From an uncultured Planctomycetia bacterium (GTDB lineage Bacteria > Omnitrophota > Gorgyraeia > Duberdicusellales > Duberdicusellaceae), in NCBI GenBank assembly GCA_964609315.1, contig CAZSRG010000004.1:1-42418 (forward strand): DNA of 42,418 nt. Direction: 5' to 3'. Below, one piece after another: positions 6,600 through 42,418 of this stretch (position 1 is its first letter; each line of letters starts with the position of its first letter). The translations under genes and the position numbers were made by a program. The notes beneath the pieces were generated by a model that was not told where the DNA came from, did not search any database, and worked only from the letters and a program-made list of their open reading frames with translations.

Positions 6600-6715
6600 A
6601 ACAAATCCCAATCTCCAATAATCAATCATCAAACAACCCAATTATCTTGATTTTTATTATTTTTTTGGTTATTGAAATTTGGCTGCTGGTCATTATTTGA
6701 TTATTGTTACTTGCC
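6600..6715. repeat. palindromic intergenic element, ccaat/attgg subtype C
   Basis: The left arm is ccaatctccaataatcaatca and the right arm is ggttattgaaatttggctgctggtcattatttgattattg. The right arm resembles 17231-17262. Confidence 0.7.
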
Positions 6716-6791
6716 TGTGCCCATTAGGGTATTAGGGTATATCTTGATTATTTTATTCCCTTGACATCATTCTTTCATACGGCTCTTGACT

Positions 6792-7732: not shown

Positions 7733-8062
7733 AAAACTCTAAACTCTTCAGCCATAGGCTGATTCTAAACAAATCCTGAAAGCAAACTCTAAATTCTAAC
7801 CAAATCCTAAATCCTAATTTCTAAATTCTAAATAAATTCTAAATTTCAATCTCAAATGTTCTAAACTTTATTTTGGACTCTGCATCTTTCTGTTTTGGTC
7901 ATTTGATATTATTTAGCCTGCCTGCGTCAAGGCTTCCCTCGGCTTCGCCGAGAGGCGAGCGCCGAGAGGCAAGCGGCAGACAGGTATTTAGGGTTTATTT
8001 ATTATTTGGCATTCCGGCCTCTGTCCTTATGTATGATATCAAGACCTGACACCTGATACTGA
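7733..8062. repeat. family-1 element (mosaic, subtype A-like) with embedded GC-rich hairpin
   Basis: ctaaa heptad arm, a ctcttcagccataggctgat module shared with 38148-38170, GC hairpin 7927-7984, and right arm tatttagggtttatttattatttggc. Confidence 0.8.
7927..7984. repeat. GC-rich hairpin module, long version
   Basis: cctgcctgcgtcaaggcttccctcggcttcgccgagaggcgagcgccgagaggcaagcggcagacagg. Homologous in reverse complement to 12744-12797 and carries an internal cgccgagaggc duplication. Confidence 0.8.
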
Positions 8063-8146
8063 CTAACTCTACGGCATCTGTATATTCTAAAAAAACCTGT
8101 TTACTCTACCGATATATTCAATAATCAGTAATGGATTAAAATTGAT

Positions 8147-8497
8147 TCAAACAGTGGTAGCTCTTTTCCCTACTTTAGTCCGCAAATAATACAAACGCGC
8201 CCGGCGAGGAGTTCTCTTAGCAGGCTGAATGATTTCAATCTTTTCTAAAAGAGGCGATAATAAAGGAAAAGTTACTTCCATAAATTCACCGTAAGAAATT
8301 CTCCTTAAAGTAAAAGATTTACGGTGCATCGCCCCTTGCATCTTAATAACAATTCCCGATATTGAATGCAGACGAGACTTATCCTTTTCCTGAATCTTAT
8401 AAGTTATCTTTATAGTATCGCCCACCTTGAATTCGGGAAAATCCTTCTTTAAAGATTCTTTGAACCCCTGCTCAATCTGAAACAACTTACCTGACAT
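8147..8497 (-). CDS. rplS: 50S ribosomal protein L19
   Basis: L19-like sequence (FKVGDTIKITYKIQEKDKSR...). ATG at 8495-8497 has AGGAGG 5 nt upstream. The track ORF start at 8515 is a GTG extension. Confidence 0.9.
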   Translation of the reverse strand: MSGKLFQIEQGFKESLKKDFPEFKVGDTIKITYKIQEKDKSRLHSISGIVIKMQGAMHRKSFTLRRISYGEFMEVTFPLLSPLLEKIEIIQPAKRTPRRARLYYLRTKVGKRATTV

Positions 8498-8520
8498 AAC
8501 ATCCTCCTTTTCCACACTTT

Positions 8521-8735
8521 GGTATTATCAAGAATATTTTTGTTCTCTAAAACTCTAAACCCGAAACTCTAAATAAACCCCAAACATAAAACCTCAAACT
8601 CAAAACGGTAATAAATATAATACTCTTTGTTTTGGGTTTTGTGTTTCCTTCATTTTGAATTTGTTTACCCCGTTAGAGAATTTTGTCTAACATAGATTCT
8701 CTCTAACGGGGTTTAGGATTTAGAATTTAGGATTT
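8521..8735 (+). repeat. family-1 element, subtype B
   Basis: Core is aaaacggtaataaatataatactctttgttttggg. Arms are of aaac/ctaaa heptads versus tttagg heptads. The right arm overlaps the last codons of trmD. Confidence 0.85.
8668..8711. repeat. hairpin insert (ccccgttagagaa...ttctctctaacgggg) in the right arm of the family-1 element
   Basis: Imperfect stem of about 13 bp. It sits between ..gaatttgttta and tttaggatttag, the same relative site as the other inserts. Confidence 0.75.
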
Positions 8736-9476
8736 AGTGTTTCTTCCCCTTCTGCCTTCTGTAACAGGTGTCTGTCCTCTTTTATCCTTTAACAAAAGGT
8801 CCGGCCTTCTAACCATAGTCCTTTGTAAAGCCTGTTTTTCCCTCCAGTCCTTTATCCGCTTATGGTTACCCGAAAGAAGGACTGAAGGGACTCTCCATCC
8901 TTTAAAAATTCCCGGCTTAGTATAATCAGGATAATCAAGAAGCCTTTTTTCAAAACTTTCGTCTTTTACTGAATCAGGATTGCCGGGCACGCCCGGAATA
9001 AGCCTTGCCAAACAGTCAACCAATACCATAGCGGGAATTTCTCCTCCGGAAAGTATATAATCTCCTATGGATATTTCTTCATCAACTAAATGTTCCCTGA
9101 CTCTCTCGTCAACGCCCTCATAACGGCCGCAGATAAGAATAAGATGTTTCTTCTTAACCAGTCTTCTACCTTCTTTCTGAGTTAAGGCCTTCCCCTGAGG
9201 ACTTAAAAGAACAGTCCTTATATTCTTCCCGGATTTACTATATAACTTCTTTACTTTCTCTACAGCCCTGAATATTGGCTGGCACTGTAAAACCATACCC
9301 GGGCCGCCCCCATAAGGAGACGCGTCAACTTTTTTATGCTTATTATCTGTATAATCTCTTAAATTATGAACAGCTATATCGAGAAGTTTTTTGTCCCTGG
9401 CTATCTTTACCGTTCCGGAGGAAAAGACTTCCCGAAACATTTCGGGGAATATAGTAATTATATCTATCCGCATCAT
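8727..9476 (-). CDS. trmD: tRNA (guanine37-N1)-methyltransferase
   Basis: 249 aa with MRIDIITIFPEMF and the LSGGEIPAMVLVD SPOUT-knot motifs. The last codons and stop lie inside an intergenic repeat arm. Confidence 0.9.
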   Translation of the reverse strand: MMRIDIITIFPEMFREVFSSGTVKIARDKKLLDIAVHNLRDYTDNKHKKVDASPYGGGPGMVLQCQPIFRAVEKVKKLYSKSGKNIRTVLLSPQGKALTQKEGRRLVKKKHLILICGRYEGVDERVREHLVDEEISIGDYILSGGEIPAMVLVDCLARLIPGVPGNPDSVKDESFEKRLLDYPDYTKPGIFKGWRVPSVLLSGNHKRIKDWREKQALQRTMVRRPDLLLKDKRGQTPVTEGRRGRNTKS

Positions 9477-9528
9477 AATGCTAAATCCAAAATTCCAGTA
9501 TTACAGATACCGCGAAAAACTTAACCTC

Positions 9529-10689
9529 TCAGCCGTCATCTTTATCAGAATCTAAAACCGCGCTATTCTCAAAATAACCGGCCAGAAAATCTTTTTTGAA
9601 TTTACGAAAACTCCCCTTTTTAATTTCCCGGCGTATCCTCTTCATAAACTCCATAAACCACCATATATTATGAAAAGAAATAAGTTTTCCGCCTAAAACT
9701 TCATTGGCATTAATAAGGTGGCGGATATACCCGCGGGAGAAATTCCGGCAGGCGTAACAGCCGCATCCTTCGTCTAAAGGCATAGAATCTTTACGAAAGG
9801 CCGAATTACGCACTACAATTTTCCCCTTGTCCGTAAAGGCTGTTCCTGTGCGGCCCAAACGAGTCGGGATAACACAGTCAAAAAGATCCATGCCTCTATC
9901 TACTAATTCTAAAATATCTTCGGGCTCTCCTATCCCCATAACATATCTCAAAGAACCCTCAGAAAAATTCCCGGAAAGAAAATCAATGATATTATATCTT
10001 AAATCCTTCGATTCGCCAACACTTAATCCGCCTATGGCAAAATGATCATATCCTGTTCCAATAAGAAATTCTAAAGACTTCTTCCTCAACTCAGGATAAA
10101 TTGAACCTTGTATAATGCCTAAAGGTAAAGGCGAATAGGCAAACTTTTCAAGGCACTCCTTAAATGCCTGTTGAGACAGTTTCGCCCAATGATTAGTTAA
10201 CGCCAGTGAATCTTCAGCGTACTTTAAGGTTACCGGAAACTTCAAACATTCATCTAAAGGCAAAACAACGCTGGAGCGGACTCTAAACTGCATTCTGATT
10301 ATATCTTCGGGTTTTAAGAAATGCCGCGACCCGTCAATATGGGAATTAAATTCTACCCCTTCCTTATAAACTTTTATTAACTTAGCTAAACTAAAGATCT
10401 GGTATCCTCCGCTGTCAGTTATAACCGGTTTTTTCCACCCCATAAACTTACGCAGGCCGCCGAGGCCCTCAATAACATCTATGCCAGGACGAAGGTACAA
10501 ATGGTAGATATTGCTTAATAATCCCTGCACACCGCAGGAATTTAAATCTTTCGGAGAAAGAGTCTTTACCGCCGCCTGGGTAGCTACCGGGAAAAAAGCA
10601 GGAGTTAAAACTTCTCCGTTTAAACTCACAATTCTGCCCAGCCTGGCTTTACATTCTTTGCTTTGATAAATCAAGTCAAAATTATTCAT
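9529..10689 (-). CDS. tgt: queuine tRNA-ribosyltransferase
   Basis: 386 aa with DCVIPTR and the CGCYAC...H zinc motif. Confidence 0.9.
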   Translation of the reverse strand: MNNFDLIYQSKECKARLGRIVSLNGEVLTPAFFPVATQAAVKTLSPKDLNSCGVQGLLSNIYHLYLRPGIDVIEGLGGLRKFMGWKKPVITDSGGYQIFSLAKLIKVYKEGVEFNSHIDGSRHFLKPEDIIRMQFRVRSSVVLPLDECLKFPVTLKYAEDSLALTNHWAKLSQQAFKECLEKFAYSPLPLGIIQGSIYPELRKKSLEFLIGTGYDHFAIGGLSVGESKDLRYNIIDFLSGNFSEGSLRYVMGIGEPEDILELVDRGMDLFDCVIPTRLGRTGTAFTDKGKIVVRNSAFRKDSMPLDEGCGCYACRNFSRGYIRHLINANEVLGGKLISFHNIWWFMEFMKRIRREIKKGSFRKFKKDFLAGYFENSAVLDSDKDDG

Positions 10690-10690
10690 G

Positions 10691-10912
10691 CTATTTCTTA
10701 AAGAAGAGGAAGAAAATCAAAGATAGGATTACACTCAGGATAATTGAGGTTGTCAGAGGAAAATAAAAGATAAGATTCTTTTTCCGGATAAGGATATCTC
10801 CCGGAATCCTGCTTAAAAAATGAGGACTAACCTTTGATAAAAAGATAAATATTAACCCCGCGGCCAAAAAACCTATTCCCAAAACAACAAAAAACCTGCC
10901 TATATTAAACAT
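10691..10912 (-). CDS. small membrane protein, DUF2905-like
   Basis: 73 aa with two hydrophobic helices and a central PGDI motif. Confidence 0.55.
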   Translation of the reverse strand: MFNIGRFFVVLGIGFLAAGLIFIFLSKVSPHFLSRIPGDILIRKKNLIFYFPLTTSIILSVILSLIFFLFFKK

Positions 10913-10921
10913 GTCAATCTT

Positions 10922-11968
10922 CTAAAACAACCTATCCTGAACTTCTTTACTATAATCTATGCCTAAATGTCTATAGGCTGTTTCTAAAGCGACTCTCCCC
11001 CTTGGGCTTCTTTTTATAAACCCTATTTTTAAAAGGTAAGGTTCAACAACATCAATAAGAGTATCCGGTTCTTCTCCCAAACTGGCGGAAATTGGTTCAA
11101 CTCCGGCAGGCCCCCCTTGATAAATATCAATAAGCACCTTTAAGTACTTCCGGTCAAGCTCATCTAACCCTTTACCGTCAATCTTTAAAAAGTCCAGGGC
11201 CTTGCCGACAGTCTCAGGCTTAATCAGACCTTCTTCTTTAACCTGGGAATAATCCCTGACTCTCCTCAACAGCCGGTTAGCTATCCGGGGAGTCCCCCTT
11301 GCCCTCCGCGAAATCTCTAAAGCTGACTGTTTATCAATACTTACACTTAAAAGTTTTGACGAACGTTCAATAACTAAGGATAAATCATTCTCTGAGTAGA
11401 AATCAAAATGAAGAAATAACCCAAACCTGCTTCTAAGAGGCGCGCTTAAAAGGCCTTCCCTGGTAGTCGCCCCAATTAGAGTAAAAGGTTTGAGATTAAA
11501 CTTTATACTTTTGGCATAAGGGCCTTTGTCAATAACAAAGTCTATCTGAAAATTTTCTATCGCCGGGTAAAGAAACTCCTCTACTATCTTACTAAGCCTA
11601 TGTATTTCATCTATAAAGAGGATATCCCCCCTCTCCAAATTAGTCAGTATGCCTATTAAATCCCCGGCGCGCTCTATTGCCGGCCCTGATGTTGCCACGA
11701 TTTTAGAAGAAAGCTCATTAGAAACACAATGAGCCAAAGAAGTTTTGCCTAATCCCGGCGGCCCGGACAGCAAAAGATGTTCTAAAGGTTCGCTTCTCTT
11801 TTTCGCGGCCTCAATAGCTATCTTCAAAGAAGAAATATTATCTCTCTGGCCTACGAATTCAGAGAGGCCCCTGGGCCTGAGAGAAAGGTTAAATACAAAT
11901 TCTTCTTCAGTCTCCTGAGGAACATCAAGCCGGCCCGCTTGAGGAAATTTATTGTTTTCTTTAACCAT
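10922..11968 (-). CDS. ruvB: Holliday junction branch migration ATPase RuvB
   Basis: 348 aa with Walker A GPPGLGKTS, Walker B FIDEIHRL and a RuvB C-terminal winged-helix region. Confidence 0.92.
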   Translation of the reverse strand: MVKENNKFPQAGRLDVPQETEEEFVFNLSLRPRGLSEFVGQRDNISSLKIAIEAAKKRSEPLEHLLLSGPPGLGKTSLAHCVSNELSSKIVATSGPAIERAGDLIGILTNLERGDILFIDEIHRLSKIVEEFLYPAIENFQIDFVIDKGPYAKSIKFNLKPFTLIGATTREGLLSAPLRSRFGLFLHFDFYSENDLSLVIERSSKLLSVSIDKQSALEISRRARGTPRIANRLLRRVRDYSQVKEEGLIKPETVGKALDFLKIDGKGLDELDRKYLKVLIDIYQGGPAGVEPISASLGEEPDTLIDVVEPYLLKIGFIKRSPRGRVALETAYRHLGIDYSKEVQDRLF

Positions 11969-11970
11969 CT

Positions 11971-12681
11971 TTAAGATACTCCCGCGTTTCTGGCAATCGC
12001 GATATCTCCAAACAAAGCTTCCTGAAATACTCCTATTTCCTTTAAACGGATAAGTTCTAGAATAGCCAGAAAAGTAGCAACAATCTCAAGTTTGTTTTTA
12101 GCGCTGGCAAAAAGTTCGTTAAGTTTAACTTTAGGCTGTTCCAACACCAGATGCAGAATATCATGAACCTTCTGCTCAACGGTAAATTCATCCTTAATTA
12201 CTTCAAAAAATACCTCTTTAGGTATATCTTTTAAAGCCGCTTTAAACGCGGTTATTAAATCAAATATGCTTGCCTCAAAATAGTTATCCTCGGATTTATA
12301 CCGGTCTAAAGAACCCGGACGGGTCAAATAGTTTAAACGGTTTAGTTCTTTTTCCTTCAAGGACTTGGCTATCTCTTTATACTTCTGGTATTCTAAGAGT
12401 TTCCGGACAAGCTCTTCTCTAGGATCCTCTTCTTCCTCCTCGTCAGATGCTTCCTCATTACGGGGAATAAGTGTCCTTGATTTAATCTGGATTAGAGTAG
12501 CGGCCATAACCAAATATTCTGAAACCACATCTATATCTAAAAGCTTCATCAGTTCCATATATTCCAGGTACTGGTTTAAAACCAAGACAATGGGAATATC
12601 GTAAATATTGATGTGATTCTTCTTTATAAGATACAGGAGTAAATCCAAAGGCCCTTCAAAAATATCCAATTTTACCTTCAT
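11971..12681 (-). CDS. scpA: segregation and condensation protein A (kleisin)
   Basis: 236 aa. Has the FEGPLDLLLYLI N-terminus characteristic of ScpA and an acidic central linker. Confidence 0.8.
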   Translation of the reverse strand: MKVKLDIFEGPLDLLLYLIKKNHINIYDIPIVLVLNQYLEYMELMKLLDIDVVSEYLVMAATLIQIKSRTLIPRNEEASDEEEEEDPREELVRKLLEYQKYKEIAKSLKEKELNRLNYLTRPGSLDRYKSEDNYFEASIFDLITAFKAALKDIPKEVFFEVIKDEFTVEQKVHDILHLVLEQPKVKLNELFASAKNKLEIVATFLAILELIRLKEIGVFQEALFGDIAIARNAGVS

Positions 12682-12710
12682 ATCTTTTCTTTATATTTTC
12701 CTTACATTTA

Positions 12711-12931
12711 GAAAATTAAACTCTAAACTCAAAATCCTAAATCCCTGTCTGCCGCTCGCCTCTCGGCGAAACCGATGGAAACCTTGGCACAGGCAGGCTA
12801 AATAAACACAAAATGAAAGAAAACACAAAAACCAAAACAAAGAACATTATATTTATTATCGTTTTGGGTTTGAGACATTTGAGTTTTAGATTTATTTAGA
12901 GTTTCGAGTTTAGGACTTAGAGTTTAAGATT
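12711..12931 (-). repeat. family-1 element, subtype B, inverted relative to the others
   Basis: The reverse complement of its core aligns with the cores at 8560-8665 and 21830-21900. Carries the GC hairpin at 12744-12797. Confidence 0.85.
12744..12797. repeat. GC-rich hairpin module
   Basis: cctgtctgccgctcgcctctcggcgaaaccgatggaaaccttggcacaggcagg, the reverse-complement homologue of 7927-7984. Confidence 0.8.
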
Positions 12932-12952
12932 ATACAATTGTCTATTTATCTT

Positions 12953-13933
12953 CTATATCCTAACGGCTTCTTTGACTTTGAGCCATGTCTTCTCAGCTTC
13001 TATAGAAGCTTTTTTTCTTCCTTCTTCTAAAATTGCCAACAACTTATCTTTATTTTTAAGAAGCTTCTTTTTCTCCTCTCTCCTAAACTTTATAAGTCCG
13101 GAAAATTTACCGGCTAATATTGCCTTACATTCTGTGCACCCTCTTTCAGCCTTTGTACACCAATTATGGACATCGGGAGAGGCGGACTCGAAAAAAGCCT
13201 TGTAATAAGAATAAACATTGCATACTTCCGGATGCCCAGGGTCGGTTTTTCTTATCCTCTTAGGATCAGTAAACATCGTCCTGACTTTTTCTTTTATCTC
13301 TGAATCTTCATCTGAAAGATATATAGAATTCCCATAACTCTTGCTCATCTTCCTGCCGTCCAATCCTAAAAGGCGGGGCACAGGCGTAAGAATAGGCTTA
13401 GGTTCAGGAAAAATAGAACTTTTATATATATTGCTGAACCTTCTGACAATTTCTCTGGTTAATTCCAAATGCGGAAGCTGATCATTCCCTACCGGGACGA
13501 ACTCCGCCCGGTACAAAAGAATATCCGCGGCCTGAAGGACAGGGTAACCTAAAAAAGCATGGGTATTAATTTCTTTAGAGCTCAATTGGGTTATCTGCTC
13601 TTTGAAAGTGGGACAGCGGTAAAGCCAGCCTAAAGGAGTTAGAATGGACAAAACCATAGAAAGCATTAAATGCTCTTTTACTTCCGACTGGACAAAGATG
13701 ACCGATTTCTCAGGAGAAATACCCCAGCTAATCCAATCCGCGACATTATCTAAAGCTAAATCCCTGACTGGAAAAGAACTCTTATACTCGCTCATTAAAG
13801 CATGCCAGTCGGCAACCATAAAAAAACAGCTGTACTCATCCTGCAGATCCACCCATTTAGACAAAGCCCCGGCCCAATGCCCTATGTGAAGCCTGCCTGT
13901 AGGCCTCATACCGCTCAATATTCGTTTCTTCAT
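12953..13933 (-). CDS. trpS: tryptophan--tRNA ligase
   Basis: 326 aa, class I signature LHIGH-like (GRLHIGHWAG) and KMSKS. Confidence 0.9.
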   Translation of the reverse strand: MKKRILSGMRPTGRLHIGHWAGALSKWVDLQDEYSCFFMVADWHALMSEYKSSFPVRDLALDNVADWISWGISPEKSVIFVQSEVKEHLMLSMVLSILTPLGWLYRCPTFKEQITQLSSKEINTHAFLGYPVLQAADILLYRAEFVPVGNDQLPHLELTREIVRRFSNIYKSSIFPEPKPILTPVPRLLGLDGRKMSKSYGNSIYLSDEDSEIKEKVRTMFTDPKRIRKTDPGHPEVCNVYSYYKAFFESASPDVHNWCTKAERGCTECKAILAGKFSGLIKFRREEKKKLLKNKDKLLAILEEGRKKASIEAEKTWLKVKEAVRI

Positions 13934-19035: not shown

Positions 19036-19214
19036 CCGTTCTGTCAAAAACATTTTTATTTTCTAAAACTCTAAACACCAAACCCGAAACTCTAAATAAA
19101 TCTAAAATCACAAACTCAAAATTCAAAACATTCATCATCTTCTATCTTTATATTGTTTTGGAATTTGGATTTTCTTCATTTTGAGTTTATTTAGAATTTA
19201 GGATTTAGGATTTT
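19036..19214 (+). repeat. family-1 element, subtype B
   Basis: Starts with ccgttctgtcaaaaacatttttatt and has ctaaa heptads. The right arm is ttcttcattttgagtttatttagaatttaggatttagg. Confidence 0.85.
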
Positions 19215-19250
19215 CTCCCCCCTCATATCAACGTAATGGACTCCAAATAT

Positions 19251-21767: not shown

Positions 21768-21903
21768 CAAACTCTAAATCCTAAACTCGAAACTCTAAAC
21801 TCTAAATAAATCCCAAACTTAAATCTTTTAAACTCAAAACAATAAATATAATACTCTTTGTTTTGGGTTTTGGGTTTTGGATTTTGTGCTTTCTTCATTT
21901 TGA
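21768..21903 (+). repeat. family-1 element, subtype B, left part (interrupted by X1)
   Basis: Ends ...ttcttcattttgag, then GTTAAC of X1 begins. The expected continuation (a)gaatttaggatttagaattt resumes at 22113. Confidence 0.85.
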
Positions 21904-22112
21904 GTTAACCGGGAAAATGCTGTTGAGTGTGCGAAATATCCATAACACCTAGTAATCTAAATAATTACATTAAACGGACGTTGTATTAAAAAGTACACAG
22001 CATTTTCCCCGTAGGTAACCTCAGTCCTATCCGCCTTTCCCCCGCCTACGGCGTGGTAAACGCGGGGCTGACCCTGCGGGCAAATAATGCTAACCGCATT
22101 ATTTGGGTTAAC
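21904..22112 (+). repeat. element X1: 209-nt candidate structured RNA or miniature mobile element bounded by GTTAAC
   Basis: GTTAAC at both ends. A perfect 13-bp long-range stem pairs 21911-21923 (gggaaaatgctgt) with 21997-22009. Terminal 10-bp hairpin at 22081-22105. Homologous in reverse complement to 41607-41884. Confidence 0.8.
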
Positions 22113-25465: not shown

Positions 25466-25657
25466 GACAAATATATATACATCGCGCGCCCGATAAAAAC
25501 TCTAAACTCCAAATCCTAAATTCTAAATAAACTCAAAATTCAAATGTTCAAATGTTCAAAACAAACTTCTTTTCAATGAGTTATGAAGAACGTTTTGAAT
25601 TTTAATCATTTTGATTTTGGATTTGTTTAGGTTTTAGAGTTTAGGATTTAGGGTTTA
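25466..25657 (+). repeat. family-1 element between dxr and cdsA
   Basis: The left flank is identical in pattern to 1641-1680. Has ctaaa heptads, a caaatgttcaaatgttcaaaac centre and the right arm tttgtttaggttttagagtttaggatttagggttta. Confidence 0.85.
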
Positions 25658-25677
25658 CATGTCTGTGTATTCAATAT

Positions 25678-28407: not shown

Positions 28408-28600
28408 ATTGTCAAAGCTATCTTTGTTTTCTAAAACTCTAAACTCTAAATCCAAAACTCTAAATAAACCTAAAACTCAAATGCTTTAAACTCAAAACAT
28501 TAATAAATATACTGCTTTTGCTTTAAACTATATTGTTTTGGGTTTTGGGTTTTCTTCATTTTGAGTTTGTTTAGGGTTTAGAATTTAGGATTTTCTCCCC
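28408..28600 (+). repeat. family-1 element, subtype B
   Basis: Starts attgtcaaagctatctttgtt and has ctaaa heptads. The right arm is ttcttcattttgagtttgtttagggtttagaatttaggatttt. Confidence 0.85.
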
Positions 28601-34606: not shown

Positions 34607-34618
34607 TTCTCCTCTCCT

Positions 34619-34749
34619 CAATGAGGCCGCAGCTTATGGAGTCCGAAGGATGACATAAGCTGCATGGCCGAATTGATCCCGCCGAAGGTTGGTAAATTGT
34701 CAACGATAATTTACCAACATCTTCTCTGAGGCGGGATTACCTTAATATT
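34619..34749 (-). repeat. element Y-A: two-hairpin structured unit directly upstream of the aminotransferase SD
   Basis: Plus-strand order is caatgag, hairpin 1 (ggcc gcagcttat...ataagctgc..ggcc), gaattgatcccgccgaagg, hairpin 2 (ttggtaaatt..aatttaccaa), then catcttctctgaggcgggattaccttaatatt. Confidence 0.85.
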
Positions 34750-34932
34750 ATAAATCAGCTATCTGTAATTACTCTGGCTGTTGATAGATAATTCTTTCGT
34801 TTTAGCATAATTAGCGAGTCTGCCATTCGCCATCCTCTGTATTTGTTAACAATTCAACCATTTAACAATATATTAATGTATTAATCTCTTCTCTCATTCT
34901 CTGACTCCTGCCCTCTGACTTCTGTCCTCTGC

Positions 34933-35526
34933 CTATTTATGCGGCAGGATAACTTCATCAATCAAGCCGTACTGTTTAGCTTCATCCGCGCTCATAAAAT
35001 AATCTCTGTCAGTATCTTCTTTTACTTTCTTAACCGTTTTTTTGGTATGAGCAGAGAGGATTCCATTTACCTTTTCTCTCAGCCTGAGTATTTCCTTTGT
35101 CTGAATAGAGATATCTTCCGCTGTCCCCTGAGCTCCGCCCCAAGGCTGATGAATCATAATCCGGGAATTAGGCAGAGCAAAACGTTTACCATCTTTGCCC
35201 GCTGCCAAGAGTAAAGCGCCCATACTCGCCGCCTGGCCTATACAGTAAGTAGCCACATCCGGTTTAACAAACTGCATCGTATCATATACAGCCAATCCCG
35301 CGGTGATGGAACCACCCGGAGTGTTGACATACACGCTTATATCTTTTGAAGGATCTTCCATCTGGAGAAAAAGCATTTGAGCGATAACCACATTCGCTAC
35401 GTTATCATCTATCGGTGTCCCGACAAAGATTATCCTGTCTTTTAACAAACGGGAATAAATATCATATGCCCTTTCAGTCCGCTGAGTCTGCTCAATTACT
35501 ATAGGAACATACCCCTGATTTTTCAT
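34933..35526 (-). CDS. clpP: ATP-dependent Clp protease proteolytic subunit
   Basis: Catalytic contexts GQAASMGA and MIHQP. I place the start at the ATG at 35524-35526 ([10 protein letters not shown]), which has GAGGAGG upstream. The track ORF start runs into repeat Y-B. Confidence 0.95.
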
Positions 35527-35538
35527 AAACAACCTCCT

Positions 35539-35670
35539 CAATGAGGCCGCAACTTATGGAATCCGAAGGATGACATAAGCTGCATGGCCGAATTGATCCC
35601 GCCGAAGGCTAGGGTAATTATCAAAGATAATTACCCTGCATCTTCTCTGAGGCGGGATTACCTTAATATT
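35539..35670 (-). repeat. element Y-B, directly upstream of the clpP SD
   Basis: Hairpin 1 matches Y-A except for 2 substitutions. Hairpin 2 is the alternative version agggtaatta..taattaccct. Confidence 0.85.
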
Positions 35671-35681
35671 TATTAATTAAC

Positions 35682-35813
35682 CAATGAGACTGTGATTTTT
35701 TATTATTCCCAATGATAAAAAATCACTTAGTCGAATTGATCCCGCCGAAGGCTAGGGTAATTATCAAAGATAATTACCCTGCATCTCCTCTGAGGCGGGA
35801 TTTCCTTAATATT
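35682..35813 (-). repeat. element Y-C
   Basis: Same conserved single-stranded blocks. Hairpin 1 is replaced by the unrelated 12-bp stem gtgattttttat/ataaaaaatcac. Hairpin 2 matches Y-B. Confidence 0.85.
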
Positions 35814-35823
35814 TACAAATTAG

Positions 35824-35951
35824 CAGTGAGCGCACAACTTACAGAACGAAGTGATTGTAAGTTGTCCGCGCGAATTGATCCCGCCGAAGGTTGGTAAATT
35901 GTCAACGAGAATTTACCAACATCTTCTCTGAGGCGGGATTACCTTAATATT
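35824..35951 (-). repeat. element Y-D
   Basis: Hairpin 1 is replaced by gcgc-acaacttaca/tgtaagttgt-gcgc. Hairpin 2 matches Y-A. Confidence 0.85.
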
Positions 35952-35960
35952 ATAAATTAG

Positions 35961-36013
35961 CTCTTTGCTCTTTGTTACTATCTCTTTGCTAAGAGCCATG
36001 AGCTATGAGCCAA
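35961..36013. repeat. degenerate heptamer tandem array (ctctttg/ccatgag type)
   Basis: Reads ctctttg ctctttg ttactat ctctttg ctaagag ccatgag ctatgag. Shares the ccatgagctat-agcc segment with 1606-1640. Confidence 0.75.
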
Positions 36014-36940: not shown

Positions 36941-37188
36941 CAAACTCTAAATCCTAAATTCTAAACTCTAAACAATTTCAAATATCAAATGTTCTAAATC
37001 CTAAACTAAACTCTAAATTCTAATACCAAATGTTCTAAACATTGTTTTGAATTTTGTATTTTGAACATTTGAGATTGTTTAGTATTTAGAATTTAGTGCT
37101 TAGGATTTATTTATCATTTGGTCATCTGACTTCTGCCCTTTGTCTTCTATCAATGTGTAGGCCTGACCCCTATTCCGGTATTTGTGTT
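36941..37188. repeat. family-1 element, subtype A, plus right-flank module
   Basis: 36961-37124 differs at 3 positions from 1696-1859. The right flank tttggtcatctgacttctgccc...caatgtgtaggcctgac recurs at 38311-38392. Confidence 0.9.
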
Positions 37189-37951: not shown

Positions 37952-38246
37952 AAAACTTCACTCCATCTTACACTCCGTAAATGTCGTGGATTATCTTTAC
38001 GAAGTATAATACCGAGTTATTCTTTTGCTCCCCCACTAATAACTCGCCATTAATCACTAACTACTAAATTCTCTAAACAAAGTCTGAAAGCAAATTCTAA
38101 ATTCTAAACTCTAAACAATTTCAAATATCAAATGTTCTAAATTCTAAACTCTTCAACTATAGGCTGATCCGCCTCAGGCGGAAAATTCTAATACTGTTCT
38201 AAACATTGTTTTGAATTTTGTATTTTGAACATTTGAGATTGTTTAG

Positions 38247-38276
38247 CCTGCCTGCGCCAAGGTTTCGGCAGGCAGG
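38247..38276. repeat. 30-bp GC-rich hairpin module cleanly inserted into the family-1 right arm
   Basis: cctgcctgcgccaaggtttcggcaggcagg is present here and absent at the matching junction gattgtttag|tatttag (37081-37083). Confidence 0.9.
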
Positions 38277-38340
38277 TATTTAGGATTTAGTGCTTAGGAT
38301 TTATTTATTATTTGGCCATCTGACTTCTGCTCTCTGCCTG

Positions 38341-39755: not shown

Positions 39756-40748
39756 CTATAAAACAACGCCTGCTTTAAGCAAATCCTGGACATCTAAAAG
39801 GCCGGCTGCCTGCCCCTGTTTATCTACCACCGGAGCTTCATCTATCTTTTTCTCTTCTAAAATACGCATAGCTTCCGCGGCAAGCATATCTTTTAAAAAA
39901 ACAACCGGATTCTTAGTCATAACCCTGTTGACTTTCCTCTTAGATAAAAGAGGGTCTTTCCCTAAGTTCCGGCGGAGATCCCCGTCAGTGAAAATACCTA
40001 TGACTTTACCTCTATCATCAACAATAATCGCGGCCCCCGCCCTGGCCTGAGTAATAGCTATAAGCGCTTGAGAAACTCTTGCCGAACCGTTTATCACCGG
40101 ATTTGCTTTTCCCTTGCGCATACAATCTCCCACTTTAAGCAAGAGTTTTCTTCCTAAACTGCCTTTGGGGTGATACCGGGCAAAATCTTTCGCCTTAAAC
40201 CTCTTCATTTTCTGCAGAACCATAGCCAAAGCGTCGCAGAGGCTTAACATAACAGTAGTAGAAGTAGTAGGCGCTAAACCTAAAGGGCAGGCTTCCCGGC
40301 TGACTTTCACGTCCAAAGACACATCTGAATACCTGGCAAGGAAAGAATTCTTATTGCCGGTAAGAGATATAATCTTAGCTCCTATCCTCTTTAAAAAGGG
40401 AAGGAGGACCTTAACTTCTTCTGTTTCTCCGCTGTAAGAAAGGACAACCGTTAAATCTTCTTTCAAAACCCTGCCTAAATCGCCGTGGACGGCTTCTGCC
40501 GGATGAAGCCAGATAGACGGCGTTCCGGTTGAAGACAGAGTAGCCGATAACTTCTGGGCGATTATTCCGGCTTTGCCCATACCGGTAGCTACAACTTTGC
40601 CTCTGCATTTTAACAAAAGGCTTACAGCCGAAACAAAATTTTCTCCCAGCCTTCCGGCAAGGATTTTGACTTCCTCAGATTCTAAAACAAGAATTTCTTT
40701 TGCCGCCTTCAATATCTCTAAGGATTTACTTCCGGCAGGGTTACGCAT
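39756..40748 (-). CDS. kdsD: arabinose-5-phosphate isomerase (SIS plus CBS pair)
   Basis: 330 aa with the SIS motif GMGKAG and C-terminal tandem CBS-like segments. Confidence 0.85.
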   Translation of the reverse strand: MRNPAGSKSLEILKAAKEILVLESEEVKILAGRLGENFVSAVSLLLKCRGKVVATGMGKAGIIAQKLSATLSSTGTPSIWLHPAEAVHGDLGRVLKEDLTVVLSYSGETEEVKVLLPFLKRIGAKIISLTGNKNSFLARYSDVSLDVKVSREACPLGLAPTTSTTVMLSLCDALAMVLQKMKRFKAKDFARYHPKGSLGRKLLLKVGDCMRKGKANPVINGSARVSQALIAITQARAGAAIIVDDRGKVIGIFTDGDLRRNLGKDPLLSKRKVNRVMTKNPVVFLKDMLAAEAMRILEEKKIDEAPVVDKQGQAAGLLDVQDLLKAGVVL

Positions 40749-41541
40749 TTAAGACTCCCATTATTTTAAATACTTGATTAAGGATTGTTTCTACTTCCTT
40801 AAAATTTATGCTGGTAGAACTGTCCGATAAGGCTTTTTCAGGATCAGGATGGACCTCGCAGAAAATCCCGTCAACGCCGAAAGCCGCGGCTGCCTTAGAC
40901 AGAGGCAGGGCATACTCTCTCTCTCCCGAAGCCCCGGACTTGCCCGCTGTTGGAAGCTGTAAAGAATGAGTTACATCAAATATCACCGGATAGCCTAACT
41001 TTCTTAACTTCCCGAAAGACTTGAAATCAACCACCAAGTTATGATAGCCGAAACACACACCCCGTTCAGTAAGGAGAATTTTCCGGTTACGGCAGGATTC
41101 TATCTTCTGAACAGCATATTTCATATCTTCAGGGGCCAAGAACTGCCCTTTCTTAATATTAACCGCCTTACCGGTTTTCGCCGCCTCTAAAAGCAAATCA
41201 GTCTGCCGGCAGAGAAAAGCGGGTATCTGGATAACATCCAGGACCTCAGCGGCAGGTTTAACCTGCGAAACACAATGGACATCGCTTAAAATTTTGACCT
41301 TGAACCTGTCCCTTACCTTTTTTAAGACTCTGAGCCCTTTTTTTAGGCCAGGGCCCCTGAAAGACTTTAAAGAAGTCCGGTTCGCCTTATCAAAACTGGC
41401 TTTGAAGATAAAATCTACGGGATAAACAGAGGTGATTTTTTTGAGTTTCTCCGCTATATCAAGAGTGAGTTTTTCATTCTCAATAACACACGGCCCGGCA
41501 ATAAAGATAAATCTTTTAGATTTAAGTTTTTTTGTTTTCAT
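40741..41541 (-). CDS. kdsA: 3-deoxy-8-phosphooctulonate (Kdo8P) synthase
   Basis: Has KASFDKANRTS and other DAHP/Kdo8P-synthase motifs. I place the start at the ATG at 41539-41541, with GGGAGA upstream. The track ORF is over-extended. Confidence 0.9.
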   Translation of the reverse strand: MKTKKLKSKRFIFIAGPCVIENEKLTLDIAEKLKKITSVYPVDFIFKASFDKANRTSLKSFRGPGLKKGLRVLKKVRDRFKVKILSDVHCVSQVKPAAEVLDVIQIPAFLCRQTDLLLEAAKTGKAVNIKKGQFLAPEDMKYAVQKIESCRNRKILLTERGVCFGYHNLVVDFKSFGKLRKLGYPVIFDVTHSLQLPTAGKSGASGEREYALPLSKAAAAFGVDGIFCEVHPDPEKALSDSSTSINFKEVETILNQVFKIMGVLNA

Positions 41542-41606
41542 TATTTCTCCCAACCGCGTCTGATATCGGATTGCTCTTTGAAAAACTCTCAAAAAATAAG
41601 TTTTTT

Positions 41607-41884
41607 GTTAACCCAAATAACGCGGTTAGCATTATTTGCCCGCCTGTGCCCGCAAGGGTACCTGTGCCCGCAAGGATACAAGGGTAAAAGGCCGGGATTA
41701 CCTAAGGGGAAAATGCTGTGTACTCTTTAATACAACCTCTGTTTAATACAACTATTTAGGCTGCCAGGCGTTATGAGCCCTGTTAGAAAAAGTGTATCTT
41801 TTTTCTCTAACCCCTAACAGGGTGAGCATCTTGCGTTTTCAAACGCGAAACCTGCCCTTAGGATACAGCATTTTCCCGGTTAAC
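41607..41884 (-). repeat. element X2: 278-nt copy of X, minus-strand sense, between the VR-like gene region and kdsA
   Basis: GTTAAC at 41607-41612 and 41879-41884. The 13-bp stem pairs 41707-41719 with 41865-41877. Terminal hairpin at 41614-41638. Has the conserved block ttgtattaaa-agtacacagcattttcccc-taggtaa. Confidence 0.8.
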
Positions 41885-42048
41885 TCTTCTATCTTTGCCA
41901 TAGCATCTAAAACATCTTTTAGATATAGACTGAGAATAATAGTATCAGAAACAGTTATGTTTTTCAAGAGTTTTTGCTGAGGGGTAACACGGGCAAGAAT
42001 TTGTAAGTTCTCCTGAACCGAATCAGTAAAACGGAGCCAGGCCTGCAC
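41839..42048 (-). CDS. doubtful small ORF (69 aa, GTG start) whose last 15 codons lie inside element X2
   Basis: No convincing SD. The C-terminal KIEELTGKML and central DSVQENLQILA loosely recall helices of Avd / 23S-IVS four-helix-bundle proteins. It may be a remnant or non-coding. Confidence 0.2.
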   Translation of the reverse strand: MQAWLRFTDSVQENLQILARVTPQQKLLKNITVSDTIILSLYLKDVLDAMAKIEELTGKMLYPKGRFRV

Positions 42049-42199
42049 ATTTTACATTTCAACTTAAATCAGAAAACAGACGCGGATTTTTCCAGAATCA
42101 AACCCCCATACAATAGTTATTCGGCAATGCCAATCTCTATTCCCCTCTCTCCGGTATATATTTTTCAAAGAGTAAAAGGGTAAAAGTACAAAGTGTTAC

Positions 42200-42418
42200 T
42201 TAGAAGCCCTGCCGACAAACGCGCCCGCCATAGCCGCTGCCACGACTGGTGAAAGTGTGAGCGGCATTGCCGCGGTCAGATACCCGCGTGTAGTGGGTGA
42301 AGCTACCCCAACTACCGCCCCGAAACCCGGAGCCTGTCGCTCCGGTAACCTCTCCTGAACTGGACCCCGGCCAGTCAGATATATCAGCATTACCGTTTGA
42401 AGACAGTTCTCCATTCCC
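42200..42418 (-). CDS. 3' end of a CDS truncated by the window edge; C-terminus resembles a DGR variable region in a C-type-lectin/FGE-like fold
   Basis: Frame with first codon at 42418-42416 reads ...SGFRGGSWGSFTHYTRVSDRGNAAHTFTSRGSGYGGRVCRQGF with stop at 42202-42200. 27 of the 31 codons after the W are NNY. The segment is locally GC-rich. The ORF track does not list it because the window contains no start codon for it. Confidence 0.55.
   Translation of the reverse strand, partial: GNGELSSNGNADISDWPGSSSGEVTGATGSGFRGGSWGSFTHYTRVSDRGNAAHTFTSRGSGYGGRVCRQGF

Follow-up and report, generated by a model that had tools for sequence, protein, structure and literature searches.

A hypervariable gene end of diversity-generating retroelement type and a dispersed mosaic repeat, probably unrelated neighbours, upstream of kdsA in an Omnitrophota contig

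Contig CAZSRG010000004.1 (assembly GCA_964609315.1), from an uncultured bacterium of the Omnitrophota, is 42,418 nucleotides long and was analyzed in its entirety (hereafter the window). Near its right-hand end, the minus strand carries the 3' fragment of a gene encoding a protein of the FGE-sulfatase fold, which is broken off by the contig end; about 150 nt without an open reading frame (ORF) after the stop codon of this gene; a 69-aa ORF with a GTG start; a structured element named X2; and kdsA (Table 1). X2 is in the sense orientation relative to kdsA, whose start codon is 66 nt beyond the X2 end. The end of the FGE gene is hypervariable in the manner of the variable regions (VRs) of diversity-generating retroelements (DGRs), and X2 is one of two window copies of a dispersed repeat family, here called X. 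The original prediction for this DNA pointed to a 13-bp stem in X2, an 11-mer shared by X2 and the spacer, the 69-aa ORF, the stop codon at 42200-42202, and the ORF-less stretch, all of which were found where it had placed them. It offered three readings: a decayed or rearranged DGR, an unusual DGR-associated RNA, or coincidental adjacency. Only the last survived our analysis. We consider it likely that two unrelated neighbors meet here: a non-autonomous mosaic repeat resembling BOX elements, bacterial interspersed mosaic elements (BIMEs), or miniature transposable elements with inverted repeats (MITEs), and an orphan or remote DGR target. Because X is dispersed, modular, and without DGR parts nearby, the adjacency of the VR and X2 appears coincidental.

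Metagenome loci L069 (JGI) and L080 (ENA) represent the same locus in another strain, and L080 has the L069 allele. A comparison of the window with L069 across 1,778 nt gives 46 differences; 44 of these are in the 139 nt of the hypervariable region, and two are in the other ~1,640 nt. The 72-aa fragment encoded at the contig end is 72% identical to the C-terminus of a 538-aa paralogue in loci L042 and L075, which matches PF03781 (FGE-sulfatase) and has the same scaffold as the window VR region. With more than 5,000 members, this gene family is found mostly in Omnitrophota. The fragment alone has no PF03781 match, but this does not count against its membership in the family because the full-length paralogue does match. 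Treponema denticola TvpA was considered as a relative of the VR fragment in PDB and rejected (E = 1.4, not significant).

A homologue with 49% identity heads a canonical DGR cassette in the metagenome-assembled genome (MAG) GCA_030691585.1 (locus L086), in the order target, bAvd (PF22296), template repeat (TR), reverse transcriptase (RT; PF00078), and second target. The L086 VRs differ from their TR at 21 of 33 adenine columns and at one of 96 other columns. When the variable columns of the window are placed on the L086 TR, they coincide with 24 of the 33 adenine columns and 25 of the 96 other columns (p = 3e-6), and setting them to A yields an asparagine-rich template, which is typical of DGRs. 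From these sequence comparisons, the gene end is a real DGR-type VR in a protein of the FGE-sulfatase fold, homologous to the VRs of a canonical Omnitrophota DGR, with its adenine specificity read by proxy from the L086 TR; here the original prediction stands. The L086 DGR is located directly downstream of a secretin-type gene cluster, and in the locus of P0018 a similar cluster (AAA ATPase, secretin) is ahead of tandem FGE-family genes.

Three independent assemblies (the window, L069, and L080) all break no more than ~100 nt upstream of the VR. Sequence at these contig ends (window 42330-42418, L069 1-50, and L080 1-90) has ~95% identity to the paralogue in L042/L075, and the break is therefore probably caused by near-identical paralogous repeats beside a hypervariable stretch. 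Exact-sequence look-ups of KdsA and KdsD to extend the contig returned no match.

No other DGR component was detected near the VR. Comparison of L086 bAvd and RT against the window by tblastn gave only noise (E ≤ 10), and against all collected loci (~0.6 Mb of X-bearing DNA) it gave nothing at E ≤ 1e-3; no ORFs with RT motifs were found in the X flanks. There is no second VR copy that could serve as TR in the 42-kb window by blastn, which agrees with the original view that the segment looped out by the stem is not the VR template. A degenerate pattern of the invariant VR columns matched only the VRs themselves among all collected loci; blastn over these loci was also negative for a TR, and a scan of viral contigs yielded none. 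The 660 nt 3' of the VR have no similarity to the L086 cassette by blastn, and X modules are absent from that cassette. The TR and RT acting on this gene may be located elsewhere in the genome, in which case it is a remote target, or past the contig end on the upstream side. Large DGR surveys recognize remote targets as a blind spot and state that such targets escape them (Roux et al., 2021, PMC8144416).

The gene block headed by kdsA keeps its order in relatives (L082-L085). In two more distant relatives, rfaE-kdsB-(pyrG) directly precedes this block, and the FGE gene, a DGR, and X are all absent; the closest relative (88% KdsA identity) has no X within 225 nt upstream of kdsA, although its flanks are not alignable. 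The FGE gene, the spacer, and X2 are therefore lineage-specific additions rather than the remains of a cassette.

Family X has at least 80 members, which are 78-299 nt long and without exception intergenic, in both orientations and among housekeeping genes. A scan of species-representative genomes with a two-block pattern found three true copies, all in the MAG Candidatus Omnitrophica bacterium 4484_171; the other three of six genome-contig matches (L001, L003, and L005) lie in unrelated bacteria and were rejected as due to chance. Scanning metagenome contigs with 20 nt of the X 3' hairpin gave 68 loci, nearly all from Ga0164318 (= 3300013103, JGI). The collected loci contain 81 X 3' modules (some loci are counted twice), and 29 of the 81 are cut by a contig end; many copies are at contig ends, as expected of a dispersed repeat that breaks assemblies. 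X was found only in Omnitrophota genome or metagenome sequences and not in viral contigs, phage records, or plasmid records. Between co-directional genes, 15 copies have the same orientation as the genes and eight the opposite, which is no significant bias. No RT or Avd was detected in the ~0.6 Mb of X flanks, so the co-occurrence of X with DGR RTs that the original prediction proposed to look for was not seen.

The second window copy, X1, shares with X2 the 5' end, the 13-bp stem (with a 73-nt loop in X1), the 3' hairpin, and the closing helix TTAACC/GGTTAA, while the middle parts of the two copies are unlike each other. X1 is antisense to both of its flanking genes, which encode a T2SSE-type ATPase and IspG.

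Alignment of 46 complete copies (including the L069 duplicate of X2) revealed a mosaic architecture. The fixed ends are TTAACCGGGAAAATGCTGT on the 5' side and GGGCAAATAATGCTAACCGCATTATTTGGGTTAA on the 3' side. Optional parts include a hairpin, CCATATTTTCC-AGTG-GAAAATATGG, and zero to three tandem 18-nt units (ACCCTTGCGGGCACAGGC) per copy. In long forms the core ends in ACAGCATTTTCCCCTTAGGTAA, which repeats the X 5' module in inverted orientation; the 13-bp stem exists because long-form copies carry their own 5' terminal motif in this second, inverted form. In X2, GGGAAAATGCTGT is the exact reverse complement of ACAGCATTTTCCC, and the two arms enclose a loop of 145 nt. Among 45 complete copies, 30 have the stem; short forms lack the core and hence the stem. 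Judged by the family alignment, the stem is a repeat-internal inverted repeat and not a DGR RNA helix.

Partial copies and lone units were also observed. Solo or tandem X 3' modules without a 5' module within 600 nt are found at L064 5880-6021 (-) and L073 11414-11433 (+), which means that partial or solo X modules exist. The 18-nt unit and its variants are present alone outside X at window positions 6713-6730 (-) and at L075 9940-9957 (-) and 12813-12830 (+). These lone units resemble a small motif of the repetitive extragenic palindromic (REP) type.

Structural conservation was assessed by covariation analysis. The four main X helices are 97% paired, with compensatory change in one of 38 pairs and no covariation supporting the 13-bp stem; in the closing helix TTAACC/GGTTAA, pairing reaches 95% across copies. 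By this measure, X structure is conserved as sequence, as would be expected of young repeat copies. In the 18-nt units, the loop bases are almost only TTGC, TTAC, TCAC, and TCGC (124 of 136 units), with TAAC in 11, and the opposite-strand loop is a GNRA tetraloop (GCAA, GUAA, GUGA, GCGA) in 124 of 136 units. In two allelic pairs (L004/L014 and L046/L062), the flanks are 99.5-100% identical and X differs by exactly one 18-nt unit. The X ends are imperfect terminal inverted repeats, matching at 13 of the first 16 nt, TTAA is present at both ends, and beyond TTAA the flanks of different copies are unrelated.

Shuffled sequences fold less stably than X2 (z = -3.5; none of 200 shuffles was equally stable), and the folds of X2 and X1 are both significantly stable (z = -3.5 and -4.3). 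X2 is 87-88% identical to the L004 and L014 copies. Rfam 15 gave nothing at gathering score in the whole window, and its sole match in 41500-42418 was a spurious snoRNA (E = 1.9) in the FGE gene fragment, outside X2. No promoter-like or terminator-like signals above background flank X2. If co-transcribed as part of the kdsA operon leader, X2 could influence the operon, and X hairpins in general may affect mRNA stability or read-through when they are co-transcribed.

Avd/bAvd proteins, four-helix bundles of about 110-130 aa, are accessory components of DGR cassettes, and the 69-aa ORF occupies the position where one could be expected. The original prediction called this ORF doubtful, which holds, and saw a loose Avd-like character in it, which does not. 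Among 5.8 billion proteins, its sole match was itself, from another assembly of the same locus. It had no Pfam match at E ≤ 1 (Avd families PF05635 and PF22296), no NCBIfam match at E ≤ 10, no Avd-type PHROG match, and no relevant PDB match, and it does not resemble the L086 bAvd. The final 14 codons (ELTGKMLYPKGRFRV, residues 56-69) belong to X, being part of its 5' module, and extend over the 5' stem arm; the ELTGKMLYPKGRFRV peptide recurs in the same frame at many X copies. The ORF is probably a chance frame running into X2 and no real gene.

The 11-mer CTTTTACCCTT (plus strand aagggtaaaag) occurs in the window only in the X2 linker and in the spacer, and it had been proposed as an extra link between VR and X2. 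Sharing of an 11-mer between an element of ~280 nt and a spacer of ~150 nt is expected ~0.02 times, which is weak evidence given the many comparisons a reader makes. The 11-mer of X2 is the family consensus (CCTTTTACCCTT is found in most X copies). On the other side, the L042 paralogue has only CTTTTA, the first six bases of the 11-mer, in common 3' of its VR, and homology stops there. The match is thus probably due to chance.

Table 1. Positions of the features discussed, in the window (42,418 nt) and in the L086 reference cassette
Feature	Position	Strand	Remarks
FGE-sulfatase-fold gene, 3' fragment	42200..42418	-	72 codons + stop 42200-42202
Hypervariable region (DGR-type VR)	42191..42329	-	reaches 9 nt beyond stop codon
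Non-coding spacer 3' of VR	42049..42199	-	holds 11-mer CTTTTACCCTT at 42176-42186
69-aa GTG ORF	41839..42048	-	orphan, probably not a gene; not Avd
X2, complete long-form copy of family X	41608..41883	-	276 nt; bounds by family alignment
X2 5' terminal module, TTAACCGGGAAAATGCTGT	41865..41883	-	near-invariant in 46 complete copies
5' arm of 13-bp stem, GGGAAAATGCTGT	41865-41877	-	inside X2 5' terminal module
X2 optional internal modules	41776..41864	-	found in part of copies only
X2 optional module, ATCCTAAGGGCAGG...GATGCTC	41824-41864	-	
X2 inserted hairpin	41776-41823	-	seen only in X2/L069, L004, L014
X2 core module	41707..41775	-	terminates in ACAGCATTTTCCC (41707-41719), 3' arm of stem
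X2 linker	41678-41706	-	contains 11-mer, 41680-41690
X2 tandem 18-nt units (two)	41660-41677 and 41642-41659	-	tandem repeat, period 18
X2 3' terminal module	41608..41641	-	hairpin AAATAATGC-TAACC-GCGTTATTT, then GGGTTAA
X1, second window copy of family X	21905..22111	+	207 nt; between T2SSE ATPase gene and ispG
kdsA	40741..41541	-	Pfam; heads kdsA-kdsD-kdsC-lptC/A-lptB-tig block
L086 DGR (JAUYEC010000011.1)	7900-13300		two FGE-fold targets
L086 VR1	9537-9712		
L086 bAvd	9728-10066		
L086 TR	10227-10402		
L086 RT	10444-11622		
L086 VR2	13006-13181		

We infer that X is a mobile element. It would be non-autonomous and moved by a trans-acting transposase recognizing the imperfect inverted TTAACC...GGTTAA ends; the TTAA found at each end may represent a duplicated target, and the 18-nt units would gain or lose copies through slippage or unequal recombination. 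Several observations weigh against the interpretation of X and the VR as a mobile mosaic repeat and an unrelated remote target. X2 shares 87% identity with one of the copies in MAG 4484_171, yet the KdsA proteins are only 64% identical, which suggests either horizontal spread in the community or a constraint on the sequence, and the latter would be in keeping with a functional RNA. The restriction of unit loops to GNRA hints at selection on the folded strand. Both FGE-type targets seen adjoin an intergenic X, in a sample biased by the fetching of loci via X. No empty sites were found among the collected loci, only unit-number alleles, and there was no unambiguous target-site duplication. Transposase genes with X-matching ends were not found either, and only housekeeping genes are located between the inverted X pairs of L028 and L055. 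On the DGR side, the gene would be a remote target whose own TR and RT were not found in the window or the collected loci.

A first alternative is that X copies are structured RNAs with a function, in regulation or for a mobile element, and not selfish DNA, and that the copy beside the VR could then act on DGR targets. The stable folds of X1 and X2, the high X identity across lineages with divergent KdsA, the GNRA-restricted loops, and the presence of X beside both FGE targets are all in its favor. However, X occurs in both orientations relative to genes, its module content is extremely variable, including short forms without the 13-bp stem, there is essentially no covariation, and nothing resembling a promoter or terminator rises above background around X2. 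X is also missing in the canonical DGR cassette and in other Omnitrophota loci, and its placement relative to target genes is unequal: it is ~310 nt downstream of the VR in the window and ~500 nt upstream of the start codon of the paralogue in L042, indicating no fixed arrangement. A function of this kind is unlikely. The narrower proposal in the original prediction, that X2 is a DGR-associated RNA, conflicts with the many housekeeping intergenic copies, with the lack of RT and Avd in their flanks, and with the absence of X from L086.

GNRA-type loops stabilize DNA hairpins, and such loops in the 18-nt units are consistent with a second alternative, in which X is a REP/BIME-type element with a REP-associated tyrosine transposase, or a palindrome-associated derivative of an IS200/IS605 element, and moves as single-stranded DNA via subterminal hairpins instead of in the way of a classical MITE with inverted ends. 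The 3' hairpin is indeed subterminal, 7 nt from the X end, the GC-rich 18-nt hairpin units also occur solo, and no clear target-site duplication extends beyond TTAA. Nevertheless, inspection of a few intervals showed no Y1 transposase gene, orientation bias is not significant (15 vs. 8), and the ends are also imperfect inverted repeats (13/16), as in MITEs, which leaves this mode of movement with a slender chance.

It is very improbable that X is a horizontally shared, constrained family of structured RNAs or single-stranded DNA hairpins of co-resident Omnitrophota whose copies beside FGE targets aid retrohoming far from the RT, where X would supply structure or a recruitment site at remote DGR targets. 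Finally, we give almost no credence to X2 as part of a decayed or rearranged cassette, with the ORF as an Avd remnant and X2 as a remnant of the TR-containing RNA: X2 does lie downstream of a real VR, and the order target-bAvd-TR-RT is known in a related lineage, but the ORF has neither an Avd signal nor bAvd similarity, no tblastn or blastn trace of bAvd, RT, TR, L086-cassette, or VR-like sequence was found in the window, X2 is a complete member of a repeat with at least 80 copies, and in the more distant relatives kdsA directly follows kdsB or pyrG, with no DGR at this position.

Other repeats are present in the window. A second hairpin-rich family, unrelated to X, is found at 34614-35967 as four copies of ~140-nt units around the ORF 34933-35541. 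It is also present in L022, L036, L055, L058, L068, and L072, folds with z of about -7 on either strand, and has no significant Rfam match. Arrays built of 7-nt repeats occupy most intergenic regions and lie on both sides of nearly every gene or operon, with AAACTCT/AAATTCT-type repeats on one side and GTTTAGG/TTTAGGA-type repeats on the other, often as inverted pairs. Examples are at 1575-1850, 7760-7850, 8540-8740, 12685-12930, 19065-19215, 21769-21890, 25497-25660, 28434-28600, 36942-37110, and 38070-38310. Several metagenome loci share these arrays with the window.

Identification of X as an interspersed repeat removes a false lead, as a long-range helix beside a VR had looked like a new DGR RNA. 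The work documents a mosaic repeat family in Omnitrophota that fragments metagenome assemblies and is common to divergent lineages of one community; no prior description was found in Rfam, phage or plasmid records, or the literature searched. It also provides a DGR target that is actively diversifying and has no retroelement within 42 kb on its downstream side. Current understanding of DGRs is unaffected.

Comparison with known systems supports a place for X among dispersed repeats. X2 resembles the DGR RNA of L086 (avd 3' end-TR-spacer) only in its position 3' of a VR and its long-range helix; it has no TR in the loop, no neighboring Avd or RT, and no L086 similarity, and the copies of X are found away from any DGR component. 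Like enterobacterial BIMEs and REP sequences, X mixes short palindromic units with other motifs, and its units also occur solo; unlike BIMEs, it has defined termini, and no REP-associated transposase was found. MITEs such as Correia of Neisseria and Nezha of cyanobacteria (PMC3049150) are similarly short, non-coding, multi-copy, intergenic, and highly base-paired, and X further shares with MITEs its terminal inverted repeats (TTAACC...GGTTAA) and its disruption of short-read assemblies. It differs from them in that the TTAA at its ends could belong to the inverted repeat or be a duplication, an autonomous partner was not identified, and X is not AT-rich throughout, its internal units being GC-rich. 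BOX elements of Streptococcus pneumoniae have the structure boxA-boxB(n)-boxC and a size of 67-637 bp, and slippage or unequal recombination is reported to alter how many boxB modules they have (Croucher et al., 2011, PMC3049150). X belongs to another phylum and has no sequence similarity to BOX; its optional modules are of more kinds, among them one that repeats the X 5' end internally in inverted orientation; and no candidate mobilizing insertion sequence or unambiguous target-site duplication was found for it. Like BOX, however, X is a composite intergenic element of comparable size (78-299 nt) with fixed end modules, variable tandem internal modules, and many predicted stem-loops, its module number depends on the strain at a single locus, and its ends are partly inverted repeats.

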